From contig JANLSU010000053.1 in assembly GCA_031362565.1 (NCBI GenBank), positions 1 to 47,427 on the forward strand: a DNA stretch of 47,427 nt. The letters run 5' to 3'. The DNA is from a bacterium (lineage in GTDB: Bacteria > Krumholzibacteriota > Krumholzibacteriia > G020349025). The translations under genes and the position numbers were made by a program. Under the pieces are notes generated by a model, which made no database searches, was not told the DNA's origin, and was given only the letters and a program-made list of their open reading frames with translations. This document shows, in pieces, positions 34,163 through 46,277 of the stretch (positions within the stretch are counted from its first letter, which is position 1; each line of letters opens with the position of its first letter).

Positions 34163-35446
34163 ATGACCTCGGCGACGACGAGCCAGATCGCGAGCGCGCT
34201 CGATCGCGAAGTGCGCGAGTGGACATTGCAGGGGTTCAAGCCGGCATTTGGGCAGCGGACGAATTCGTTCGAATCGGGCCCGCGCTGGAAAGCGCTGCGT
34301 GACACCGGCACGGCGCTGTGGCTTGATACCGGCGACATCGCCGGCATCAAGGGCATGTGGACGCGCGAATTCTCGGCGCTCACGACCAATAACACGCTTC
34401 TCAACAAGGAAGTGCAGCGCGGCCAGTACGACGATCTGGTCAAGCGCACGGCAGCACGGCTGCGGGAACTCGAGCCCAACATCCCGTCGCAACTTCTGGT
34501 GCTCGAAATCGCTTTCGTTCTGAACGCCTACCACGGGCTGCGGTTGGTCGAGCAATTCGATGCCATGGTGAGCGTCGAGGAACACACGGACTTGGCGCAC
34601 AATGTCGACCTGGCCGTGCTCTACGGCAAACGCTTTCACGCGATTTGCCCGGAGCGTTTCATCGTCAAGTTGCCGCTGACGCCGGCGGGACTGCTCGGCA
34701 TGCGCAAGCTGCGCCAAGCGGGCATCCCGATCAACTTCACGCTTGGTTTCTCGGCGCGCCAGAACTACTTGGCAGCCCGGGTCGGCGATCCGAACTGGGT
34801 CAACGTTTTCTTGGGACGCCTGAACGCGTTCGTGATGGATTCCAAGATCGGCAGTGGCGAGGGCGTGGGCGAGAAGGCGACCGCCGCGAGCCATGAAGCG
34901 CTTGCCGAGTTGCGCCGCACCGGCCGGGCATCGACGCGCCAGATCGCCGCCAGCTTGCGGAGTGGCGAGCAGATTTGGACTTTGGCGGGCGTCGACGTGA
35001 TGACGATTCCGCTCGCCGCGGCGCAAGAGTATCGCGACGCGGCGCGGCCGCCGGTTGCGGCCCGTGGGCCCGAGGCCGCGGCGATTCAACCTGGGATCGA
35101 CGCGGATGCACGCCAGAAACTGCATCTCGATTGTCTGTGGGATGTGACGCCGGAGTTCCGCTCGGCCGTCGACCGGCTCGTGCAGCAAGATTTGGATCAC
35201 ATGACGCCCGATCAACTCGTGGCGTTCTTGCGCACCAACGGCGCCGGCGATGTCTTCCCCGAGTGGTCGAAGGCGGATCTCGATGCAATCGGCGCCGACG
35301 GCAAGATCCCGAAGCTCGATCGCTGGCGGCCGCGGCTCGAATCGGGTGCGGTGGGCTTCGACGCGCTGATCAATATGGCAGGACTCTTGTCGTTCTCGCA
35401 GGACGAGAAGGCGCTCGACGACCGCGTCCGCGGCCTCGTCGGCTGA
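34163..35446 (+). CDS. Transaldolase family protein
   Basis: LWLDT, TTNN, IVKLP (Schiff-base Lys), NFTLGFS, FLGR, AASLR; SD GAAGGGA; alternative start 34088. Confidence 0.88.
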   Translation: MTSATTSQIASALDREVREWTLQGFKPAFGQRTNSFESGPRWKALRDTGTALWLDTGDIAGIKGMWTREFSALTTNNTLLNKEVQRGQYDDLVKRTAARLRELEPNIPSQLLVLEIAFVLNAYHGLRLVEQFDAMVSVEEHTDLAHNVDLAVLYGKRFHAICPERFIVKLPLTPAGLLGMRKLRQAGIPINFTLGFSARQNYLAARVGDPNWVNVFLGRLNAFVMDSKIGSGEGVGEKATAASHEALAELRRTGRASTRQIAASLRSGEQIWTLAGVDVMTIPLAAAQEYRDAARPPVAARGPEAAAIQPGIDADARQKLHLDCLWDVTPEFRSAVDRLVQQDLDHMTPDQLVAFLRTNGAGDVFPEWSKADLDAIGADGKIPKLDRWRPRLESGAVGFDALINMAGLLSFSQDEKALDDRVRGLVG

Positions 35447-35457
35447 CGCGCGCGCCG

Positions 35458-37692
35458 ATGCGCCGCAAGGGTACGAAGCAGCCTGCGGCGGCCGTCGCGG
35501 CCAAGGTCCCCACGCCGACTCGTGCCAGTTCTCGGCAGCCGGCAGCCACCGGTCTCGGGTGGCTGCAGGGCGGTGCGGTACGCGCGCCATGGATCGCGGG
35601 ATTCGTGTTGGTCGCAGCGACGCTGCTCGTCTACGCACCAGGACTCCGCAACGGTTTCGCCTACGATGACTACTGGCTTGTCGAGACGAATCCAGCGCTC
35701 CGCGCGCCAGGGTCGATGGCGCACTATCTTGGGACGGCTCTTTTCGCCGGCACGCGAGAGGCCGCCGACGGCGTCTGGGCGGGCGGTTCCGTCGACTATT
35801 GGCGGCCGTTCATCAAGCTGGCGCTACTCCTGCAGTTTCGTGCCTTCGGCGCCAATGCGAGCGGTTATCACGCGGTAAGCCTCATTGTCCACGTCGCGAC
35901 GGTCCTGCTTGCCTTTGTTTGGCTCAGAAGACGGGTGATGGCGTTGTGGCCGGCCGCGCTGGGCGCCGCACTCTTCGCATTGCACCCGGCGCGAGTGGAA
36001 TCGGTGAGCTGGGTTTCAGGCTCGACCGACCTGTGGATGGCGTTCTGGGTGGTGCTGGGCCTCGTGGTTTGGGAACGTGGGACGCGCGCGGCGGCGATTG
36101 CTACGTCGATTGCGTTCGGGATCGCGGTGCTCGCGAAGGAAACCGCGCTTGTTGTTCCAGTCTGTCTCGCAGTCGACGCATGGGCGAGCGGTGCGACGCC
36201 TCGACGCGCCGTGCGCGCGGTCTTGGGGCCGGCACTCGCGCTCGGGTTTTTTGTCGTGCTCTGGATCGCCCTCTTGCATCCTGCGGGCGGGAGAGCCTTC
36301 GGGCGCGCGCCGCGCATTCTCGCGAGCGTTGGCTCGTACGTGGCACAGACGTTCTTTCCCCTTCACCCGTCGTCGCAGGTCGGGCTGGTGAGCGCGGATG
36401 GGCACTTCGAGTTTGGCATCGGGCTTCTTGCTCTGGGTGCCGTGACGTTGCTCGGCGGGGCGTTCGTCGCGGTGGCGGCGGCGCGAAAGCCGGTGCTTCG
36501 CCCCTGGTTCGCGGACGCAGCTTGGTTCGCCGTGCCGCTCGCACCGGTCTCGAACGTCGTGGCGATCGGCTATACGACGCTGATCGCCGAACGCTTTCTG
36601 ACGTTGCCGCTCTTGGGTGGCGCCGCACTCGTGGCACGTGCACTCCGTACGATGTTCGTGGCGGTGCCGCGGCTGCGAGTTGTGGTTGGCGCCGGAGCGT
36701 GTGTTGTCTGTGGCGGTCTCGCACTCGTGTCGGCGTCGTACGTACCGCAGTGGCGCGGCAACGACACGTTGTGGAGGTACGAAGCGCGCTTACACCCCGA
36801 CAGTCCAAACTTGCAGCTCTATTTGGCGCGCGCCGAAATGATGGCTGGCCGCACTGAAGCCGCGATGCGGGCAGCCGGCGCGGCGTATGCGCGCGCCCGC
36901 ACGCCGGACATGCGCGCCTGGGCGGCGGTAGCCTGGGCGGCGTCGTGGTTGCGCACCTTGCCGGATGCCGAGCAGGAGCGCCTCACAGCGCTGCGCAGTT
37001 TCTACGACGACCTCTCGGAACGGGGGACTGCGACGCTGGATGCAAATGGAACTGCGTGGCCGATCGCGCCGACGTCCGTGATTCGCGGCCAGGTGCGCAA
37101 CGCTGTTGCGAACGCCCGCGCGATGACCCATGCGCGTACCGGAAGTCTCGCGACTGCCGAAGCGTTGTTCGCCGACATCGCGCGGCATGATTCGAATCCA
37201 GCGAACGTCGCTAACTGGGCGCGCGTGGTGGCGTTGCAGGGTCGCTGCGACGAAGCGCTCGCGGCGCTCGCACCGGTGCGGCGCGCCAACCCGAGCGATG
37301 CCGAACTCGCGGCACTGGACACCGCGATTCGGCGTGCCCAAGTGTGGGCGAACGAGGGCGAAACGAAGGAGCCACGCGCCGTTGCAGCCCGTGCTGTCGC
37401 GGCGCGCGCCCGACTCTGGCTCGACGTCGGCTCGCTGCCGCTCGCGCTGCGCACGCTCGAGACTCTGGATGCCGCAGCAGCACAGGCCCCCGAGGTCACC
37501 GCCGTGCGCGCATTGACTCGGGCCGCTGACGGCCGCCCGGACGAAGCGCGCACGCTGCTCGTCGCGGCGCGTACCCAGGATCCAAGCCATGCCGCACTCT
37601 ACGACCGGGCGCTCGCGGAACTCGAAGGTGCAGCACCCGTCGCGCCCAAAGCGGCGAACGTGCGCGGCAACGTCGACGCACTGTTTCACTAG
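35458..37692 (+). CDS. Second TMTC-like GT-C membrane protein with helical/TPR-like C-terminus
   Basis: FAYDD, YWRP, YH..S..H, HP..VESV.W, AKE, AERF..P; multiple TM helices. Confidence 0.8.
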   Translation: MRRKGTKQPAAAVAAKVPTPTRASSRQPAATGLGWLQGGAVRAPWIAGFVLVAATLLVYAPGLRNGFAYDDYWLVETNPALRAPGSMAHYLGTALFAGTREAADGVWAGGSVDYWRPFIKLALLLQFRAFGANASGYHAVSLIVHVATVLLAFVWLRRRVMALWPAALGAALFALHPARVESVSWVSGSTDLWMAFWVVLGLVVWERGTRAAAIATSIAFGIAVLAKETALVVPVCLAVDAWASGATPRRAVRAVLGPALALGFFVVLWIALLHPAGGRAFGRAPRILASVGSYVAQTFFPLHPSSQVGLVSADGHFEFGIGLLALGAVTLLGGAFVAVAAARKPVLRPWFADAAWFAVPLAPVSNVVAIGYTTLIAERFLTLPLLGGAALVARALRTMFVAVPRLRVVVGAGACVVCGGLALVSASYVPQWRGNDTLWRYEARLHPDSPNLQLYLARAEMMAGRTEAAMRAAGAAYARARTPDMRAWAAVAWAASWLRTLPDAEQERLTALRSFYDDLSERGTATLDANGTAWPIAPTSVIRGQVRNAVANARAMTHARTGSLATAEALFADIARHDSNPANVANWARVVALQGRCDEALAALAPVRRANPSDAELAALDTAIRRAQVWANEGETKEPRAVAARAVAARARLWLDVGSLPLALRTLETLDAAAAQAPEVTAVRALTRAADGRPDEARTLLVAARTQDPSHAALYDRALAELEGAAPVAPKAANVRGNVDALFH

Positions 37693-38038
37693 CGCGGGCG
37701 CGTGGCCGGGTGCGCTCCGCTCAACGGGCTCGACTGGTGCCCGGTCGAATGAATTCTCGCAAGAGGTGAGCCACGAGATCTTGGTCAGCGAGTGTGGCGC
37801 TGCAGGCTTGGTTGTTCGAAATGGCTGCACACTGTTCGTCAACGAGAGTGACGAACACGTGTTGGTTGCGTTGACAGGGACCGGGCTCCCGCCGAACTCG
37901 CCCGCGCGGTCGTGATCTCGCGAGGGCTCGTTCCAGAACGAGTGTTTGCAAGAGAACAAGGCCACGAGTGTGTCACAAAGTTTGCTTCGTTCTTCTGGAG
38001 GCTCGGCGCCCGCGTCCCCTGAAAAACGAAGCCGACTC

Positions 38039-38067
38039 TTGACAAAAAGTTCTGCGTCTGGTAAATT
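38039..38067 (+). promoter_or_regulatory. Strong sigma70 promoter with no credible downstream CDS
   Basis: TTGACA-17 nt-TAAATT with extended -10 TG. Confidence 0.7.
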
Positions 38068-38072
38068 GAGGT

Positions 38073-38334
38073 CGTGAGTTCGTGGCCCGCGACTCCGTGC
38101 GGGTGGCTCCTCCCAGGGCCGAGAAGATTCCATTGGAACTCGTGAACGTTGCGAGTGCCGGCACCGCATTGCCGGCTGCCTGCCGCCGCGAGCCTCGCCG
38201 ACAGCCACTGTTGGGGAGCGCCACATCATATTTCTGCGTGTACGCGCTTGAACGTCCCAGCCGGTTGTTCGCGCGCACGTCGCCGCGGCGCCCCGGCTGG
38301 TCTCGATCGCGATTCACTTGCGAATACCCAAGTG
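38073..38334 (+). ncRNA. Candidate structured non-coding RNA of unknown family
   Basis: Begins at the expected TSS; stems 38073-81/38136-44, 38157-63/38170-76, 38257-64/38293-300, 38315-20/38329-34. Confidence 0.3.
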
Positions 38335-38441
38335 TCCCGACGTTATCCGTCGCGCGAGCGGGAGCCGAAGGTTCGGGTGTCTCGACGTGATCCGTCGAAG
38401 GGGCGCGAGGCCAGAGTTCGAGTGTCCCGACGTGATCCGTC
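38332..38441 (+). repeat. Three 20-bp hairpin repeats at exact 45-bp period
   Basis: GTGTCCCGACGTTATCCGTC (38332), GTGTCTCGACGTGATCCGTC (38377), GTGTCCCGACGTGATCCGTC (38422); 25-nt spacers. Confidence 0.9.
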
Positions 38442-38494
38442 TCGGGCGTAAGGCGAGGCGGGGCGGGGCGAAGAGCGGTCAGACTTGAACTTGG

Positions 38495-40042
38495 CTAGCG
38501 CACGTTCAGGTACATGAACGGCGGGATGCTGAGGCCGACGACGTTTTCGCCGCCGGTGAGCTCGCGGGCTTGGCCGAGGGCGTGTTTGAGGTTTGGTGCC
38601 CAGGATACACCCAGGCGTTTGGCCGAGACATCGTTCGGCGGCCCTACCAGGATGACGCGCGACAGATACTTCATCGGGTAGGTGGCCCAGTACCAAACCG
38701 TGAATGGATGGAAGCCGTGGTGTGCCCAGTGGTTGCGGTACGCATCGACCAACTGCGGGTCGCGCGCGAACTTGTCCTGGAACTGCCGCTGCATTTCGAA
38801 CGGGTCCTTGGTCGCCGGCAAGACCTCGTCCCAGAAGCGCTTGTAAGCCACATGGTACTCGGGGTGGAAGAATTCGAGGACCGGGTTCAGGATGATGGCG
38901 ACCCCACCCGGTTTCACGAACGGCTTGCCCCAGAACCAGTTGAAGACGTACCCGAGAACGTCACTCACGACGAGCACGGGATTGATTCGCGTCCCGACGG
39001 AATACGGTGAGAGATCCGGGAGGCCAAATACCATGGTGTCGAACTGCCGGTCGACATTCACCTCGAGCTGCGGCCGGAGTGCCGCCAAAGTGCGATCGTG
39101 CACGGCGTCGATATCGCCGGCATTGAACTCGAGCGCCCGGTATTCCGACTGCAAGCCTTTGAAGATGGAGAAACGCGTCGATTCGGGCAGCAAGCTCATG
39201 GCGGCCGGTGCCACGTTCTGGAGAAGGCGCTCGAGGCCGTTCGACTTCTCGGCGGGCCGCGACAGGAAGCTCATGTGGGGCGGATAGGTCGCGCCGTTCA
39301 TCGGGGCTTCCAGCACCATGATGCGCGTCTTGCGCTGGATGACGCGTGACAGGCGTTCGATGCTCGAGTGCATGTGCGACCCGTCAGGCTGCATGACATG
39401 CGGGCTGTCCTGGGTCATTTGCGGCGCATGGTGCGTGCGGATGCTGTCGTACGTCCCGAGCCCGACGGCGACCGACTTGTGGCCACCGTTCAACGGAATG
39501 GAGATCGTGTCGACGTAAATCACCAGATCGCTGTCGAGCACGGCGCGGGAGGTCTCGACCAGTTCGCCCTGCTCGGTCGTGCCCATGTTGACGATGTCGT
39601 CGCGGTCTTCGGCGTCGAAGTTGCGCAACTGATGGGGGTGGTATTCGGCGAAAATCCGCTTGCCCACCATGAACTCGAGTTCGGCGGGCTTCATCTTGCG
39701 GTGTAACGCCACCGCGCACATGAGCTGCAGGTTCTTTTTCTGCACGCCGTAGGAGTCGAGCATGGCGAGCAATGCCTCGAGGCAGAGCTCGCGGATGTCC
39801 GGCGGCCGGAGCGGCGGAAAAGGCTGGCAGTTGTCGTCGAAGCAAATGAGGATTTTGGAGTCTCGCGCCACGAGCTCGCGAAGCGGCGGCATGCCGAGGG
39901 GGTTTTCGAACGCCTTGCGGACCGCGGCGGCGACGTCGCGATTGGCGATGCCGGGCAAAGCCGGCGGCGGAAACAGCACCCGCGCGGTGGGGGGCAGCTC
40001 GGCATGCACGAGGCTGTTCCCTGAATACGTGAGGTAGCGCAT
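38495..40042 (-). CDS. LarA-superfamily (DUF2088, lactate-racemase-like) protein
   Basis: ENPLGMPPL, FDDNCQP, ALHR, GGHKS, RTHH, GDIDAVH, KPGGVAI; SD GGAG. Confidence 0.85.
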   Translation of the reverse strand: MRYLTYSGNSLVHAELPPTARVLFPPPALPGIANRDVAAAVRKAFENPLGMPPLRELVARDSKILICFDDNCQPFPPLRPPDIRELCLEALLAMLDSYGVQKKNLQLMCAVALHRKMKPAELEFMVGKRIFAEYHPHQLRNFDAEDRDDIVNMGTTEQGELVETSRAVLDSDLVIYVDTISIPLNGGHKSVAVGLGTYDSIRTHHAPQMTQDSPHVMQPDGSHMHSSIERLSRVIQRKTRIMVLEAPMNGATYPPHMSFLSRPAEKSNGLERLLQNVAPAAMSLLPESTRFSIFKGLQSEYRALEFNAGDIDAVHDRTLAALRPQLEVNVDRQFDTMVFGLPDLSPYSVGTRINPVLVVSDVLGYVFNWFWGKPFVKPGGVAIILNPVLEFFHPEYHVAYKRFWDEVLPATKDPFEMQRQFQDKFARDPQLVDAYRNHWAHHGFHPFTVWYWATYPMKYLSRVILVGPPNDVSAKRLGVSWAPNLKHALGQARELTGGENVVGLSIPPFMYLNVR

Positions 40043-40057
40043 CCGCTTCTCCAAGGG

Positions 40058-41248
40058 TCAGGGCGCGAAGACGGTTTTCATGATGCCGGCGCGGCCGGCG
40101 TTCAGAGCGCCGTGAATAGCCTCACGGTAACGCTCCAACGGATAACGCGCGCCGGTGACGGTCGCCAGCGGTTCGACGAGTCCCTGCACGACGTCGATGG
40201 CGCGGCGGAACGTTGGTGTCGTGCTGGTGTATGCGCCGCGGACCACGAGTTCCTTGTGCCAGATCGAAGTCCAGTCGATGCCGCGTGGAATCGACGGCAT
40301 GCCGACCAAGATAACGGAGCCGTGATGGCGCGTAAAGCGGAGCGCGTCATCGAGGCTGCGGTCGGAGCCGACGCAGTCGAAGGTCACATCGGTGCCGCCG
40401 ATGAGCACCGGTCGTCCGAGCTCGGGCTTGAAGAGCCGCGCCCCGAGTAGCGCGAGGAGGCCTTCGAGCATGTCGCGCGGTGCAAGCACATGATCGGCGC
40501 CCAAGGCGGCCGCGAGCCGCTGTTGGTGCGGGTACTTGGCGACCGTGATGATGCGCGCCCGTGAACCGACGGCGCGGATGGCGGCGATGGTGAGCGCGCC
40601 GATGGTGCCCGCACCCAGCACGAGGGCGGTCGCTGTGTCGGCGGGCGGTGCCAACTGGACCGCGTGCAGGCAACAACTAAAGGGCTCGACGAGGACCGCG
40701 ACTTCGTTTGGAACTGCAGCGGGCACCGGGTGCAACTGCCGCGGGTGGGCGACGAAACTGTTGCTCCAGCCGCCGCCGGTATCGCGGCAGAATCCGGTTT
40801 GAATGCCCGGCGCCAAGCAGCCGTCCATGACGTTGTGGCAATGCGAGCGGTGCCCCTCGGCGCAGGCCGGGCAAAGCGGTGTGATACCGCGGAGCGCGCA
40901 GTGCAAGGGTGGCTCGAGGACGACACGATCGCCGACTTTGACCCCGTCGGCTTCGGGCCCCAGTTCAGCCACTTCGCCCACGACCTCGTGGCCGAAGGTA
41001 AATGGACAGGAGGTGAACGGCGAGAAATAGGTCGAGCCCTGAGCCGTGAGTGTTGCGAGATCCGAACCGCACACGCCGGCCAGGAGCGGCCGCACTCGCA
41101 CCCACGAGGGCGCCGGGAGCTTTGGTGGCGCGGCATTCGACAGGCGCAACGTGCCGAACGGCGAAGTATAGAGCGCCGGGAATCGCGGCCCCGCAAGCCG
41201 CGCCGTCAGGTACCGCGGCACGCTGCGTAAATACTCGAGGGCCATCAT
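40058..41248 (-). CDS. Zinc-dependent alcohol dehydrogenase (MDR)
   Basis: GVCGSD, GHE, C..CPAC..C, EP, GAGTIG; start overlaps the HAD stop. Confidence 0.92.
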   Translation of the reverse strand: MMALEYLRSVPRYLTARLAGPRFPALYTSPFGTLRLSNAAPPKLPAPSWVRVRPLLAGVCGSDLATLTAQGSTYFSPFTSCPFTFGHEVVGEVAELGPEADGVKVGDRVVLEPPLHCALRGITPLCPACAEGHRSHCHNVMDGCLAPGIQTGFCRDTGGGWSNSFVAHPRQLHPVPAAVPNEVAVLVEPFSCCLHAVQLAPPADTATALVLGAGTIGALTIAAIRAVGSRARIITVAKYPHQQRLAAALGADHVLAPRDMLEGLLALLGARLFKPELGRPVLIGGTDVTFDCVGSDRSLDDALRFTRHHGSVILVGMPSIPRGIDWTSIWHKELVVRGAYTSTTPTFRRAIDVVQGLVEPLATVTGARYPLERYREAIHGALNAGRAGIMKTVFAP

Positions 41249-41919
41249 CGTGAGGGGCTCCAACGCAAAATATCCCAGCCACGCGTCGTGGCGATGTGAG
41301 CCAGACGCCGGCTCGGATTCACGACGCCGGCGTGGCCGACGCTGCCCAACATCGGTACGTCGTCCATACTGTCGGCGTAGGCCCAACAGATGCTGGGGTC
41401 GAGCCCACGGCGCGTGACGCACTCGGTCACGGCGGCCGCCTTGCGTGCATGGGCGATGGGCCCATCGACCAGACGGCCCGTCAACCGTCCATCGCGTTCT
41501 TCCATGTCGGGGGCGAGTAGTTCGGTGGCTCGGAGCCGCGCCGCGAGCGGCGCGACGACTGTTCGCAGTGAACCGGTGACGAGGACGACGGCATCGCCAC
41601 GCTCTTGGTGCAGGCGCACGCGCGCCTCCGCCCCCGGGAACAAGCGTGGCTGCAAGAACCGTTCGGCATGGATGCGCGCCCGGCGCTCCAACTCGGCAAC
41701 GCTGAAACCGCGATAGTTGCCGTAGAGGGCACGCTGAAAGCGCGGCCGGCTCCAGGCATCGAGGGCGAGATAGTAAGGGACACGCAACGCGAACAGCGCG
41801 GTCCACAGGGCGCGCCTGGTGGGCGAGAACTCCAACGTTCGCAGGTTGACGTAGTAGCGCACGATATTGCCCGCGACGAGTGTCCCGTCGACGTCGAAGA
41901 ACGCCGCGGCGCCGCTCAT
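41245..41919 (-). CDS. HAD-IB family phosphatase
   Basis: FFDVDGTL, VTGS, conserved K, YADSMDD; ATGA overlap with the upstream gene. Confidence 0.92.
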   Translation of the reverse strand: MSGAAAFFDVDGTLVAGNIVRYYVNLRTLEFSPTRRALWTALFALRVPYYLALDAWSRPRFQRALYGNYRGFSVAELERRARIHAERFLQPRLFPGAEARVRLHQERGDAVVLVTGSLRTVVAPLAARLRATELLAPDMEERDGRLTGRLVDGPIAHARKAAAVTECVTRRGLDPSICWAYADSMDDVPMLGSVGHAGVVNPSRRLAHIATTRGWDILRWSPSR

Positions 41920-44900
41920 TCGGGCCGGGACGCGAGCGCGGCGATGCGCTCGCGCACGTCCTGGGCAATGCGGCGGTACAGCTCTTCCTTGGAACCGTTG
42001 GCGTTCAAGCGATAGCGTTCCATCGGCATCGGTGTCCCGAAGCGCACCCGCACGCGGCCCGGCTTGGGGAACATTTGGCCGGCCGGCAGCACTGCATACG
42101 TGCCGTCGATGCGCGCCGGCACGACAGCCGTGTTGGTCTCGTAGGCGAGCAACCCGAGCCCGGCCTTGAAAGCCTGCATTTCGCCGCTCCGTGAGCGCGT
42201 TGCTTCCGGAAAGATGAGAACCGGTTCGCCGGCCGCCAGAATGCTCTTGGCGACCCGCAGTCCATCGAGCCCGGTCTGGTCGCGCCGAATCGGCACGACA
42301 TTGAAACAGCGGCTGAAGAACCAGCTCTTGGGTTTCGTGTCGAAGAAGTAGTCACGCGCGCCCAGCACGTGCAGGCGTGCGGCGGCATCGCGGCCGTGCG
42401 TCGCGGCGACCGCCGAGAACACCGCCCCCACATCCAAGTGGCTGGTGTGATTGGCGGCGATGATATAGGCGCCCGTTGCCGGCAGCATGCCGTCCACCTG
42501 CGGCGGGTCGAGCTTGAGATACGTGCGGTAGAACGTCCCGAGCCCCGAGATCGAAGTGCGCAAGAGCGCCAAATCCATCGGCGAGCGCTGATGGGTCGGG
42601 AACGACGACGGGAAGGACTCGACCCGCGCTGCCTGCGTGCCGGCCCGGGCCGCGGCCACCTCTTGGAACAAATCGCCGACCGTGCGCACCGCTTCGATCC
42701 GTTCGTCCGAAACCGCGACCCCAAAGTGCGCTTCCATGAAGAGCAGGAGTTCGACCGCTTCGAGAGAATCCAATCCCAGGTCGCCGAAGATCTGGCTGTC
42801 GGACCGGATGTCGCTTGCGGGCACACCCGAAAGGCGCGCCAACTCGTCGACCAGTGCACCGTCCTGCGCGCCATCGACCACCGCTGCCGCCGGCGCTGCG
42901 CCACTCGGGGCGCGCCGGCCGACTTCGCCGAGCACTTTCTGCAACACGACGTCGCGGCGCAGTTCGCCCTCGGCATCGCGTGGCAACGCCTCATGCCAAA
43001 GGTGAACTTGTTGCAACCGGTGGTAGCTCGGCAGTTCCTTGCCGAGGGCCTGCAAATCGCGCTGCAGCTGTTTGCGGAGGTCGGCGGCGGGCATCTCGCC
43101 GAGCGCCGATTCCTCCGGCACCACGGCCGCATGCACCTCTTCGGTGAGCCCGCTCTTGACCCCGACGACGCAGATCTCTCGCACCCCCGGCACGCGCGCG
43201 TAGATGCCCTCGAGATCGCCGGGGTACACATTCTTGCCCGCGCCCGTAACGATGACGTCCTTGATGCGGCCCGAGATGTACACGTAGCCTTCTTCGTCGA
43301 CCCACCCCAAGTCGCCGGTATGGAACCAGCCGGCGCGCACGACCTTGGCGGTCGCCTTGGGATTCGCCCAGTACTCGCGCATCAAACTCGGGGTGCGAAC
43401 GACGATTTCGCCGATCCCGTCGCGGTCCGGATGCGACAGGCGTAATTCGACCCCGGGCAGCGGCTTGCCCACCGAGCCGGCGCGCGACTTGCCGTCCGGA
43501 TTGAACGTCAGCACCGGCGCCGTTTCCGTCAGCCCATAGCCTTCGTAGATTGGAATGCCGAGAGCGTTGAAGTCGTCGTACAACTCTTTGCCGAGCGCCG
43601 AACCGCCGCTGACGACAAACCGCAGCCCCGCCCCGATCTCGCTTCGCACTCGCCCGATCGCCGCCCGGTTCCAGCGCCGCGCCGGCCGTGGACTCGGCTT
43701 CGCGGTCGCGCCAGTCGCCGCGCCCGCGCCATTCGCGCCGTTCATCGTCGCGCCGCCGCGGGCCACCGAGCGCTCCACCTTCATCACCCGCCGCTCGAGG
43801 TCCTCGCGCATGAGCGCATACAGCGTCGGCACGCCGAGCATCATCGTCGTGCCGGTCTCGCGCATCGTCTCGAACATGGCCTTGGGCTTGAGCGCTCCCG
43901 CATAGGTCACCGTGGCGCCGAGCCACAAGGGCGTCAAGAAACCGCACGTGAACTCGAGGGCGTGATACAAAGGCAGCACCGACAACACTTGATCGCGCTC
44001 GTCGAGCGGTGGCGTATAGCGCAGCACGCCGAACACATTGGCGAGGAAGCTGCGATGCGTGTGCACCGCACCCTTGGGATCGCTCGCCGTGCCACTCGTG
44101 AAGATGATCGATGCCGCATCATCGGCACCGATGATGCTGTCGTCCGCCGGACGCATCACGGCCGCGGCGCCGCGCGCCACCGGCGTGTAGCCTTCGATCT
44201 CGAGCGGCGCCGCGCTGCGGTTGACGCTCAGAATCTGCACCGGCTCGGGGGTGGCGTCGTTTTCGGCGAGCGCCTCGGGCGTCAGCCGTTTGGCACACAC
44301 GTCCGAGACGACGAGGGCCCGCGCGCCGGTGAAACGCGCAATCGCCCAAACCTCCGGCGGCCACGCCTGCCAATCGAGCGGCACGACGATGACACCCAAA
44401 AGGGCCGCACCGAGCGCCGTCATGCCCCACTCCGGCTGATTCTCCGACCACAGAACGATGCGGTCGCCCTTCTGCAAGCCAAGCGCCCGCAACCGTTCGC
44501 ACACCGCATCGGCGCCGCGCTCGACATCCTGGAACGAGTGCCGTTCCCAGACCCCACCGCGGCGCATTTGCAGCGCCGTCTTGGTGCCGAAACGTGCCGC
44601 GCTGCGCCGCAGCAATTCGCCGATCGTCGCTGGCCGGGCGGCGCCGTCCGCGGTCTCCGGAAGTTCGCCGTTGTCCCCTTCGATCTTGAGGATGTAGCGC
44701 TTCATTCCCGGGATGTGCACGTTTTGGATGTAGTGCCGCCAATTGAGCCGCGTCACGTCGAACGGGAAGGCGCGCTTCTCGTCCTCGTCCATCGACTCGA
44801 ACAATTCCATCAACCGGTCGACTTCGAAACGGCATTCGATGTTCAAATACGGTTCGTAGATCTCGCCGTAGTAGTACAGCTTGTCGAACGCCGCGCGCGT

Positions 44901-46277
44901 CGCCGACACGCGCCGCTTGGCCTTGGTCGCGGCATCGAGCCCCGGGAAGCGGTCGAGCGCCTTCTCCGCCGATTCGAGCGGCGCGCGCCGTAGCCGGTGC
45001 TGCAAGCGAAACGCGCTCTTGCTGGGGAAGCGCAGGTACTTGATGCGGATCGGCTGTCCCGCCTTGTCGGTCATCGGATTGCGAATGAAATACCGGTAGA
45101 TGAGATCGTAGAGGTCGCCGAGCGTGATCGGATTGCGCGATCCGGTCGCCACTTGATAGCAGGCGACCCCGCCGCGCTCTGCCAGACGCGGGATCGCGGC
45201 GAGCAGTGCGTTGACCACCATGTCGACCGGCACCAAGTCCAGGTTGACGTCGGGCTTGAGCGGCAACGCCCGCAACCGCCCCTTGCCGATGGCAACGATG
45301 AGCGGATCCGCCATGCGGAGCCCGTCGAGCCAGCCCGGAATCGGCTCTGAAAGGCTGCTCTCGATGACCGACGGGCGCACGATCGCGATCGGGATGTCGC
45401 CGCGCGCTCGCACCACGACCTGCTCGCCGAGCGCTTTCGTGTACGTGTACGTGTCGTTCCAGCCGCGCTCACGCGCCCAAGCCATGCCTTCGGCGACCAG
45501 TTTGTTCTGCAGCCATTTCTTGCGCAGACTCTCGATGGCCTTGCGGCGCCCTGACGACTTGCCGCTCTTCGCACTGCGCGACCGCTCGACCAGCACGCGC
45601 AAGAGCGCCCGCTCGACCTCCGGGTCCTGCGACTCGGCCTCGCAGCGCGCAATGATCTCGCGAATGCGGGCGACGTCGCGCGCCGGGTCGCCGATGTAGC
45701 CGCGCGGAAATTCTTCGACCGAGCCGGCCGGCGCCGTGTGGTAGAGCGTCTCCGGAGCGATCGCATGCGAGGCGCCGGCGACATAAGCGGTCGACACATG
45801 CACCAGAACCGCTTTGCGGCAGGAGGCCGCGAACGCCGCGACGCGTTCCGCGCCCATCACATTCAATTGCAGGGCCTCGTCGAGCGCCGCGTCGAAGCTC
45901 ACGACCGCGGCACTATTGATGACGATGTCGACGCTCGACCGCAGGCGGGCTGCCGTCTCGGGATCCAGCCCGAGGCCGTCCATGGAGATGTCCCCGCCGA
46001 CCGCCACCAGGCGGGACCGGATGAAGGCGTCGAATTCCGCTCCATAGATGGAGCGCAGGGGGTCGAAGACGCTCGACTCGTAGAGTTCCTTCTCGAGCCG
46101 CTTTTCGGGCGTCAGAACGACCCCGGGCGATTGACGCTTCGGACGGATCAAGACATGGATCCGCGCCACACCAGGTGCCGCGTGCAGGATCTTTTCGACG
46201 AGAGGCTGGCCCAGGAACCCGGTTGCTCCGGTGATGAGCAGGGTCTTCCCGTCCAGGTAGACGGAGGTCCTATTCAT
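41916..46277 (-). CDS. ElbD-like multidomain enzyme: fatty acyl reductase (NAD_binding_4 + Sterile), AMP-binding acyl-CoA/ACP synthetase, ACP, PlsC-type acyltransferase
   Basis: TGATGFLG and YTYTK (FAR); FTSGTASDPKG, YGLTET, TGDLG, GR.KD (AMP-binding); LGLDSL (ACP Ser); NHTSHLD and FPEATRS (acyltransferase); 1453 aa. Confidence 0.93.
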   Translation of the reverse strand: MNRTSVYLDGKTLLITGATGFLGQPLVEKILHAAPGVARIHVLIRPKRQSPGVVLTPEKRLEKELYESSVFDPLRSIYGAEFDAFIRSRLVAVGGDISMDGLGLDPETAARLRSSVDIVINSAAVVSFDAALDEALQLNVMGAERVAAFAASCRKAVLVHVSTAYVAGASHAIAPETLYHTAPAGSVEEFPRGYIGDPARDVARIREIIARCEAESQDPEVERALLRVLVERSRSAKSGKSSGRRKAIESLRKKWLQNKLVAEGMAWARERGWNDTYTYTKALGEQVVVRARGDIPIAIVRPSVIESSLSEPIPGWLDGLRMADPLIVAIGKGRLRALPLKPDVNLDLVPVDMVVNALLAAIPRLAERGGVACYQVATGSRNPITLGDLYDLIYRYFIRNPMTDKAGQPIRIKYLRFPSKSAFRLQHRLRRAPLESAEKALDRFPGLDAATKAKRRVSATRAAFDKLYYYGEIYEPYLNIECRFEVDRLMELFESMDEDEKRAFPFDVTRLNWRHYIQNVHIPGMKRYILKIEGDNGELPETADGAARPATIGELLRRSAARFGTKTALQMRRGGVWERHSFQDVERGADAVCERLRALGLQKGDRIVLWSENQPEWGMTALGAALLGVIVVPLDWQAWPPEVWAIARFTGARALVVSDVCAKRLTPEALAENDATPEPVQILSVNRSAAPLEIEGYTPVARGAAAVMRPADDSIIGADDAASIIFTSGTASDPKGAVHTHRSFLANVFGVLRYTPPLDERDQVLSVLPLYHALEFTCGFLTPLWLGATVTYAGALKPKAMFETMRETGTTMMLGVPTLYALMREDLERRVMKVERSVARGGATMNGANGAGAATGATAKPSPRPARRWNRAAIGRVRSEIGAGLRFVVSGGSALGKELYDDFNALGIPIYEGYGLTETAPVLTFNPDGKSRAGSVGKPLPGVELRLSHPDRDGIGEIVVRTPSLMREYWANPKATAKVVRAGWFHTGDLGWVDEEGYVYISGRIKDVIVTGAGKNVYPGDLEGIYARVPGVREICVVGVKSGLTEEVHAAVVPEESALGEMPAADLRKQLQRDLQALGKELPSYHRLQQVHLWHEALPRDAEGELRRDVVLQKVLGEVGRRAPSGAAPAAAVVDGAQDGALVDELARLSGVPASDIRSDSQIFGDLGLDSLEAVELLLFMEAHFGVAVSDERIEAVRTVGDLFQEVAAARAGTQAARVESFPSSFPTHQRSPMDLALLRTSISGLGTFYRTYLKLDPPQVDGMLPATGAYIIAANHTSHLDVGAVFSAVAATHGRDAAARLHVLGARDYFFDTKPKSWFFSRCFNVVPIRRDQTGLDGLRVAKSILAAGEPVLIFPEATRSRSGEMQAFKAGLGLLAYETNTAVVPARIDGTYAVLPAGQMFPKPGRVRVRFGTPMPMERYRLNANGSKEELYRRIAQDVRERIAALASRPE

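Follow-up and report, generated by a model that had tools for sequence, protein, structure and literature searches.

What does a distant relative of lactate racemase do at the end of a bacterial operon for ether lipids? The question arises from a contig of 47,427 nucleotides (JANLSU010000053.1 of assembly GCA_031362565.1, from a member of the Krumholzibacteriota), the whole of which we call the window. At 38495..40042, on the minus strand, lies a gene for a protein of 515 amino acids that belongs to the LarA superfamily (Lar_N) and has one catalytic histidine. We will call it the target. It is the last gene of an operon whose first gene encodes an ElbD-like ether-lipid megasynthase. The elb literature assigns no enzyme to the ether-forming step (PMC13159169 and the available parts of PMC9131029 and PMC13012113), and the target, which is probably an ElbC-class enzyme, is a testable candidate for that step. 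We tentatively propose that the target is a nickel-pincer enzyme that fills the slot of the flavoenzyme AGPS (alkyl-dihydroxyacetone-phosphate synthase) in ether-bond formation, and that a neighboring zinc-dependent dehydrogenase is the backbone reductase. We consider this reading plausible, a little short of an even chance.

The target's gene is real. Its open reading frame (ORF) spans 38495..40054, and the ATG at 40042 agrees with the N termini of homologues in the family alignment. By fold and by family, the target is a member of the LarA superfamily. Pfam finds Lar_N alone (E = 7.5e-33, 113.9 bits versus a cut-off of 23.3); the FAD_binding_4 and FAD-oxidase_C domains of AGPS are absent. 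The best NCBIfam model is NF052592 (513.9 bits, under its cut-off of 740), and the next model scores 96 bits. The models for known racemases (NF033504 for LarA, NF052593/5 for Mar, and NF052525) give 65–96 bits against cut-offs of 460–540. By sequence, the closest solved structures are LarA_Sp from Streptococcus plurextorum (9q2u, E = 7.2e-36) and LarA_Bw from Blautia wexlerae (9q3j), ahead of malate racemase and of LarA from Lactiplantibacillus plantarum (LarA_Lp). We modeled the target with AlphaFold2 from 25 homologues; the model (pLDDT 86.8, pTM 0.89) is confident except at residues 186–188 and has the two-domain LarA fold. Foldseek's top match for the model is 9q3k_A (E = 8.4e-38, TM scores of 0.81/0.87), as compared to TM scores of 0.65/0.76 for LarA_Lp (5huq), and among the matches listed, the 17 top-ranked PDB entries are all LarA-family proteins or the Thermotoga maritima homologue. 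The target is the sole Lar_N protein encoded in its genome.

To identify equivalent residues, we aligned a profile of the family, made from 25 sequences, to the sequences of proteins in the PDB. The family is strongly conserved across phyla (mean column identity of 74%). The lysine that tethers the cofactor in LarA_Lp (K184) corresponds to K189 of the target; the nickel ligand H200 corresponds to H205, which is 16 residues past the lysine in both proteins; the first catalytic histidine H108 corresponds to H114; and the ribose-binding aspartate D72 corresponds to D70. These residues lie in the motifs DDNCQP (69–74), ALHR (H114), GGHKS (K189), and HH (H204 and H205), which are invariant in the 25 sequences, except that D70, the second aspartate of DDNCQP, is conserved in at least 90%. 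K189 and H205 are also invariant in 21 sequences that cover both the target's subfamily and a sister subfamily (described below), as are H114, Y347, H442, and H445 (D70 is again at 90% or more), and K189 and H205 match the lysine and histidine of 9q2u too. The second catalytic histidine is missing: H174 of LarA_Lp aligns to a four-residue gap in the target's family. R75 of LarA_Lp is replaced by Q73, which is invariant in the target's family; the sister subfamily has leucine instead. In the loop before the tether lysine (DTISIPLNGGHK), the target has serine at residue 181 (window 39500–39502), where 23 of the 24 other aligned sequences have glutamine (DxIQIPLNGGHK). As judged from this alignment, the target retains the residues that are expected to hold the cofactor nickel-pincer nucleotide (NPN), without the two-base set of the racemases.

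Much of this had been anticipated in an earlier note on this DNA, which did not give the strand. It described a divergent LarA-like enzyme that keeps the equivalents of D72, H108, K184, and H200 with the spacing of 16, that has no counterpart of H174 in a loop about 4 amino acids shorter, and that has glutamine in place of R75. The Lar_N score and the profile-to-PDB alignment bear out each of these points. The earlier note took these features to argue against two-base racemization, which agrees with the loss of the second histidine and of Arg75 and with the low scores from the racemase models. A structure prediction, which it named as a check, gave a model that matches LarA-family folds.

LarA_Sp (9Q2U/9Q3K) and LarA_Bw (9Q3J) are the best match to the target by sequence (profile E = 4.9e-59) as well as by fold. 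They are of the same long form (about 500 amino acids) and share the tether lysine, the nickel-binding histidine, the first catalytic histidine, and the ribose-binding aspartate. They too have lost the second catalytic histidine, and they have no known substrate (PMC12611868, partial text). Tyr307 and His401 of LarA_Sp, which line an unidentified ligand density in the holo structure (PMC12611868, partial text), align with Y347 and H445 of the target. However, these proteins are only about 20% identical to the target, and their genes lie near glycolytic or sugar genes instead of in an ether-lipid operon. The target's loop is 3–4 residues shorter, and Asn185 of LarA_Sp sits in an insert and has no counterpart in the target's family. 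Furthermore, His306 and Lys76 of LarA_Sp are replaced by Pro346 and Gln73, so the target lacks all three hallmarks (the invariant asparagine, Lys76, and His306) of the subfamily in which histidine is replaced by asparagine. LarA_Lp (5HUQ) shares the target's fold, the four equivalent residues, and the lysine-histidine spacing, but besides the deletion of H174 and the change of R75 to glutamine, the target is about 90 residues longer, the sequence does not allow its C-terminal domain to be aligned, and it scores just 65 bits on NF033504 (cut-off 460).

The target's neighbors are on the same strand. The ElbD-like megasynthase (41916..46277, minus strand, 1,453 amino acids) contains, in this order, a fatty-acyl reductase (NAD_binding_4 and Sterile), an acyl-AMP ligase, a carrier protein, and a glycerolipid acyltransferase, as identified with Pfam. 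None of these is a domain that is known to form ether bonds. The next gene (41245..41919, minus strand) encodes an ElbB-like hydrolase of the HAD family with 224 amino acids (PF12710, E = 5e-38), and it is followed by the gene (40058..41248, minus strand) for a zinc-dependent medium-chain dehydrogenase/reductase (MDR) of the polyol- or threonine-dehydrogenase type (396 amino acids, ADH_N and ADH_zinc_N in Pfam). The nearest NCBIfam models for the MDR are polyol or threonine dehydrogenases, and all of them score far under their cut-offs. Start and stop codons overlap as ATGA between ElbD and the HAD protein and between the HAD protein and the MDR; the gap between the MDR and the target is about 15 nucleotides. 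We fixed the start of the MDR at ATG 41248 from an alignment of 11 orthologues and from the DNA. We rejected a longer version of 636 amino acids, with an N-terminal extension of 240 amino acids; the upstream stretch codes for the HAD protein in another frame. The window's ElbD is 50–57% identical, over its full length, to ElbD-like proteins whose genes have the same neighbors in other phyla.

How widespread is this arrangement? We scored 8,000 proteins, of which at least 561 match the target at E ≤ 1e-10. The best 120 relatives are 60–83% identical to the target and about 515 amino acids long. They are annotated as "DUF2088" or "lactate racemase domain" proteins and are from Acidobacteriota, Gemmatimonadota, Latescibacterota, Planctomycetota, and other groups. 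A relative is encoded in 261 species genomes, and we examined 80 of these loci. In 17 of the 59 loci with over 6.5 kb of upstream DNA, ElbD is upstream, the MDR adjoins the homologue, and the HAD gene lies between ElbD and the MDR. The MDR is directly upstream of the homologue in 22 of the 67 loci with over 1.3 kb of upstream DNA. In genomes where the homologue is unlinked, an ElbD-like gene was usually found elsewhere (9 of 10 genomes), and in the four such ElbD loci that we inspected, it is followed by the HAD gene and then the MDR gene.

Co-occurrence across genomes is tighter than linkage. We sampled 460 genomes, from Acidobacteriota (n = 151), Gemmatimonadota (n = 101), and the target's own phylum (n = 208). 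In Acidobacteriota, 16 genomes encode a member of the LarA family and 24 encode ElbD; all 16 of the family-positive genomes have ElbD, and the family is found in none of the 127 ElbD-negative genomes. Both the LarA family and ElbD are present in two Gemmatimonadota, and these are the same two genomes. In the target's own phylum, the window genome is the only one with the LarA family and the only one with an ElbD that spans all of the domains; outside it, no ElbD match covers all four domains, and the best covers residues 580–1132. So every family-positive genome in the sample (19 of 19) has ElbD. Orthologues of the MDR were found in exactly the 4 of 151 Acidobacteriota that have a LarA homologue of the target's type, and they are always beside ElbD. 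The restriction to one genome in its own phylum points to horizontal acquisition of the module.

We also noticed that four relatives of the window genome from the same family (G001, G003, G004, and G006; G004:C1:746084-754757, for instance) have a separate fatty-acyl-reductase-like gene whose product is 33–34% identical to residues 8–535 of ElbD. In G003, G004, and G006, an acyl-AMP ligase is encoded within about 8 kb of it. These genes may be a split module for fatty alcohols or waxes that is unrelated to the acquired elb operon.

What replaces the LarA homologue in genomes that have ElbD without it? The answer seems to be AGPS. Using an AGPS from the locus L095 as the query (it matches PDB 4bby at E = 7e-160), we found AGPS in all seven of the Acidobacteriota that have full-length ElbD but no LarA homologue, in just one of the 16 Acidobacteriota with the homologue (G332), and in none of the 127 that lack ElbD. 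Nor did AGPS turn up in any of 9 further homologue-positive genomes, namely the window genome and genomes from at least five other phyla (positive control, G319); in all, 1 of 25 homologue-positive genomes has it. The Lar_N proteins of AGPS-type genomes, if any, are canonical LarAs that are encoded far from ElbD. In a maximum-likelihood tree of 28 ElbD proteins (a quick analysis that included 4 of the 7 AGPS-type genomes, and in which one gene is entered twice, as L034 and L101), the AGPS-partnered ElbDs are interleaved with the LarA-partnered ones. For instance, L096 is sister to L088 and L089 with SH-aLRT support of 99. The well-supported branches force at least two changes of partner. So in the genomes sampled, the LarA family and AGPS replace each other as partners of ElbD.

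One AGPS-type locus (L095:7595-15818, from G319) encodes ElbD, a 249-amino-acid ORF without a Pfam match, AGPS, and a short-chain dehydrogenase/reductase (SDR; adh_short), and no HAD protein, MDR, or LarA homologue. It is a bacterial gene set for ether lipids of a eukaryote-like kind. HAD genes are present in the LarA-type ElbD loci that we examined and in none of the four AGPS-type loci. AGPS and the LarA family occupy the same place in the gene content, but their folds and cofactors are unrelated: AGPS (4BBY, 2UUU) has an FAD-binding fold of the PCMH type instead of the LarA fold with, as predicted, NPN. The AGPS route has an SDR beside it in the one locus scanned, and the LarA route comes with the HAD protein and either the MDR or ElbE. 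The two cofactors do have an electrophilic center in common, we infer (N5 of the flavin and C4 of the pyridinium).

If the target uses NPN, then its genome should be able to make it. The window contains no larB, larC, or larE, as the earlier note had said, but a search of the genome, which it named as a check, found all three on other contigs (C90 and C75), above the curated cut-offs (LarC at 434 bits; LarB at 280 bits, cut-off 175; LarE at 334 bits, cut-off 150). LarC is present in all 16 of the homologue-positive Acidobacteriota and in 92 of the 135 others. The interpretation in the earlier note is partly supported. Pfam domains and gene overlaps confirm its lipid operon, and its idea that the LarA-like enzyme is an analogue of AGPS has gained comparative support, since ElbD is accompanied by either this LarA family or AGPS, with two or more switches of partner. 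It did not mention that a HAD phosphatase and a zinc-dependent dehydrogenase co-vary with the target, or that this class of gene probably matches the published elbC.

The link to elbC comes from a sister subfamily. When we searched the 151 Acidobacteriota with the family profile, four of the 16 positives were orthologues at about 970 bits, and the other 12 scored 296–467 bits. In the loci of these 12 that we inspected, the LarA homologue lies beside a divergent ElbD, which is 31–42% identical to the window's ElbD, and in 3 of 4 loci, the order of genes is HAD, LarA homologue, ElbD, and NAD-dependent epimerase. This mirrors the published order in Myxococcus xanthus, elbB-elbC-elbD-elbE, in which elbC has no assigned function (PMC9131029 and PMC13012113, partial texts). 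Members of the sister family are annotated in metagenome-assembled genomes of Polyangia and Myxococcales, and as a lead, an Atlas look-up gave a Myxococcota-rich Lar_N cluster with a score of 0.92. Given the published gene order and the members from Myxococcota, the sister family is probably ElbC of M. xanthus (MXAN_1529 by the published numbering). The two subfamilies are just 33–37% identical, yet both have the shortened loop and H114, K189, H205, Y347, H442, and H445. Because the sister clusters mirror elbB-C-D-E, we classify the target as a probable ElbC-class enzyme. It shares an operon with ElbD and with an ElbB-like HAD protein, but an MDR takes the place of ElbE, which is an SDR of the NAD-dependent epimerase/dehydratase family.

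A sister-type protein (from L098) scores 798 bits on NF052592, above the cut-off of 740. This model describes LarAH14/15/16, groups without His174 from Desguin 2020. It is the target's best-scoring named family, with the same shortened loop, and both types adjoin ElbD and a HAD gene, but because the target's score of 513.9 bits is under the cut-off, we place the target in a sister clade instead of in NF052592. The types also differ in motif (DDNCQPFP in the target and DDISLPLP in its sister) and in having asparagine (N185) or aspartate; and the order ElbD-HAD-MDR-LarA homologue, with an MDR instead of the SDR "epimerase" ElbE as partner, is particular to the target's type. The target represents a further sister subfamily, as yet without a name, whose partner dehydrogenase and order of genes are different.

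Of the functions in the eukaryote-type pathway, ElbD has the fatty-acyl reductase, the activation of the acyl group, and the GNPAT/AGPAT-like step, but it lacks AGPS and the reductase for alkyl-dihydroxyacetone phosphate (alkyl-DHAP). The genes beside ElbD come in one of three sets: AGPS with an SDR; the LarA homologue with ElbE and the HAD protein; or the LarA homologue with the MDR and the HAD protein. Given these sets, it is simplest to suppose that the LarA homologue is the catalyst of the ether-forming step and that the dehydrogenase sets the C2 alcohol. Furthermore, Myxococcus makes ether lipids via elb largely independently of AGPS (PMC9131029, partial text; PMC13159169), so some Elb protein must form the ether bond. 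And for one-histidine LarA homologues, hydride chemistry other than that of a racemase is suspected (PMC13524815, partial text).

In our proposal, the target would work only together with ElbD. Its NPN would come from LarB, LarC, and LarE of the same genome. The reductase domain of ElbD would supply the fatty alcohol, and its acyltransferase domain would supply the acylated glycerol or glycerol-phosphate backbone. On a backbone that is oxidized, perhaps transiently, at C2, the target would enable the fatty alcohol to take the place of the sn-1 acyl group. The enzyme would borrow a hydride and put it back on the face that it came from, or else C4 of the pyridinium would act as an electron sink, like N5 of the flavin in AGPS. 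Either way, no inversion is needed, so one histidine would be enough. The final C2 alcohol would be set by the MDR (or by ElbE in the sister clusters, or by the SDR that is beside AGPS in one scanned locus), and the HAD protein would remove the phosphate. The loss of the carboxylate-binding arginine suggests a substrate without a carboxylate, and the presence of the HAD protein suggests the use of dephosphorylated intermediates along part of the route. A search of the window genome for PF10520 (CarF/PEDS1) gave no match, nor did any of the control genomes.

A more novel claim is that ElbC-class LarA homologues are flavin-independent ether-bond synthases, whose tethered NPN activates the glycerol or DHAP backbone for the exchange of sn-1 acyl for fatty alcohol, by a same-face loan of the C2 hydride or by a C4 electron sink. 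This is possible, but we hold it with more doubt than our proposal for the target. If true, it would be the first C-O bond-forming, non-racemase reaction of the LarA fold and a new type of reaction for a rare organometallic cofactor. It would supply the missing step of the aerobic elb pathway in Myxococcota, Acidobacteriota, Gemmatimonadota, Poribacteria, and other phyla, and the LarA homologue with the HAD protein and a dehydrogenase, as opposed to AGPS, would be a genomic marker for producers of ether lipids. [quoted passage not shown] Nickel-pincer enzymologists, in turn, are looking for the role of one-histidine LarA homologues (PMC12611868 and PMC13524815, partial texts), and our finding joins that question to the missing ether step.

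The literature already describes one-histidine LarA homologues, the family LarAH14/15/16, and elbC, each by itself. Among the papers that our literature search listed, we found none that links ElbC or elbD to LarA, DUF2088, or lactate racemase; elbC together with ether lipids was found only in one review, and we found nothing on MXAN_1529. The main text of the sponge-symbiont preprint does not mention elbC, LarA, DUF2088, or "lactate racemase".

Several observations weigh against our proposal. First, linkage to ElbD is the minority state: in 42 of the 59 loci, the homologue is away from ElbD, with varied neighbors. One genome with an unlinked homologue (G471) gave no ElbD match at E ≤ 1e-100, and G237 has a partial ElbD with neither the LarA homologue nor AGPS. 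In L008:6281-16045 and about 18 related loci, all from one clade, the unlinked homologue is found among an RraA-like aldolase, a GFO/IDH/MocA oxidoreductase, a zinc-dependent alcohol dehydrogenase, Ldh_2, and an NAD-dependent epimerase, a neighborhood that looks sugar-like or hydroxy-acid-like; the L008 genome nonetheless has ElbD-HAD-MDR elsewhere. Related genomes are not independent, and the pattern of co-occurrence rests on a few clades. Second, the exclusion between the LarA family and AGPS is not absolute. G332 has both, and according to the literature, M. xanthus has AGPS as well as elb. The HAD protein accompanies the LarA route and not AGPS, so more is exchanged than a single gene. Third, Q73 takes the place of an arginine or lysine that binds the phosphate of NPN, and the loop beside the tether lysine (residues 186–188) was modeled with pLDDT under 50, so NPN binding could differ or be lost. 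Fourth, larC is widespread (108 of 151 Acidobacteriota and 102 of 208 genomes from the target's own phylum). It is present in all six of the same-family relatives of the window genome (G001–G006), and the five of these that were tested all lack Lar_N. So the genome's larBCE is not explained by the target and is weak as specific support for it. Fifth, LarAH14 from Frankia, which is in the nearest named group, had no activity in seven assays (PMC7583248, partial text), and elbC is not among the mutated genes that are described in the available part of PMC9131029.

We also considered that the target might be a helper for backbone redox. The NPN enzyme would interconvert alcohol and ketone at C2 of a glycerol or glycerol-phosphate intermediate, such as acyl-glycerol 3-phosphate or monoacylglycerol to the level of DHAP, and so feed or drain the pathway; ElbD or another enzyme would form the ether bond. 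Hydride transfer at C-OH is the known chemistry of NPN (PMC12611868 and PMC13524815, partial texts), the target has kept one catalytic histidine, the nearest solved relatives are thought to act on phosphorylated sugars or polyols, and the family is seen only in ElbD-bearing genomes among those sampled. However, an NAD(P)-type dehydrogenase that is dedicated to such a step (the MDR or ElbE) is already present in the operon, and ElbD has no known ether-forming domain. Nor would a redox helper explain why AGPS is present wherever the LarA homologue is missing. We consider this explanation unlikely, although it is a serious one.

Less likely again is that the target is a one-way epimerase, a unidirectional version of the LarA racemases that sets or inverts a configuration, either at C2 of the glycerol backbone or in a 2-hydroxy lipid precursor. 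The target belongs to the LarA superfamily, the nearest NCBIfam model is named "NPN-dependent hydroxyacid isomerase, LarAH14/15/16", and the authors of the 9Q2U and 9Q3J structures suggested a unidirectional racemase for one-histidine (His-to-Asn) homologues (PMC12611868, partial text). But in the target, the second base is deleted instead of substituted, and the arginine that binds the substrate's carboxylate and the phosphate of NPN is glutamine (leucine in the sister subfamily). The available parts of the ether-lipid pathway literature hold no role for an epimerized backbone, and the complementarity with AGPS would be left unexplained.

It is improbable that the target has the LarA fold but has given up NPN and instead serves the ElbD pathway as a scaffold, as a partner that binds lipids, or as an enzyme that uses some other cofactor. 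The features that would fit are Q73 in place of a ligand of the NPN phosphate, the low model confidence in the tether loop, and larBCE genes that were inherited with the lineage and that serve another purpose in its relatives. Because those relatives have larC without Lar_N, the cofactor presumably serves a client other than LarA in this lineage, which agrees with reports of non-LarA NPN enzymes (PMC13524815, partial text). (We considered an AKR-type NPN enzyme beside larBC of the window genome, which is at G000:C90:12695-14676, and rejected it; the neighbors are Dus and unassigned ORFs.) However, two subfamilies that are just 33–37% identical share an invariant K189, H205, and H114, as well as a D70 that at least 90% of the sequences keep, which is hard to explain without the cofactor; and LarC is present in the window genome as well as in all 16 family-positive Acidobacteriota.

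Finally, a carbohydrate or hydroxy-acid enzyme that is beside lipid genes by chance in some genomes would fit the 42 of 59 unlinked loci and the sugar-type and hydroxy-acid-type neighbors in the L008 group, but this is very improbable, given that all 19 family-positive genomes among the 460 have ElbD, that two divergent subfamilies each adjoin their own divergent type of ElbD, and that the genes in the window are translationally coupled.

Downstream of the target, we did not count the 479-amino-acid ORF at 36790-38229 (minus strand) as a fifth gene of the operon. It lies 265 nucleotides from the target's stop codon, has no match in Pfam or NCBIfam, and has no homologue in the 80 related loci. 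It overlaps, by about 900 nucleotides, a 905-amino-acid ORF on the plus strand that has weak matches to tetratricopeptide repeats (TPR); together they cover window 34975-38229. At most one of the two is real across the overlap, and neither is conserved beside the LarA homologue in other loci. A scan of 37600-38600 for terminators and promoters gave nothing useful on the minus strand.

Two other loci have additional lipid-related genes. In a Phycisphaerales chromosome (L072:9259-19703), genes for a small acyltransferase of the PlsC type and a GT4 glycosyltransferase directly precede the LarA homologue, which is followed by an ORF of 2,730 amino acids that has no Pfam match at E ≤ 1e-5. And in an acidobacterial cluster of the target's type (L101:5445-6371, from G260), a gene similar to YegS and diacylglycerol kinase (DAGK_cat and YegS_C) is directly upstream of ElbD; this kinase might re-phosphorylate an alkylglycerol intermediate.

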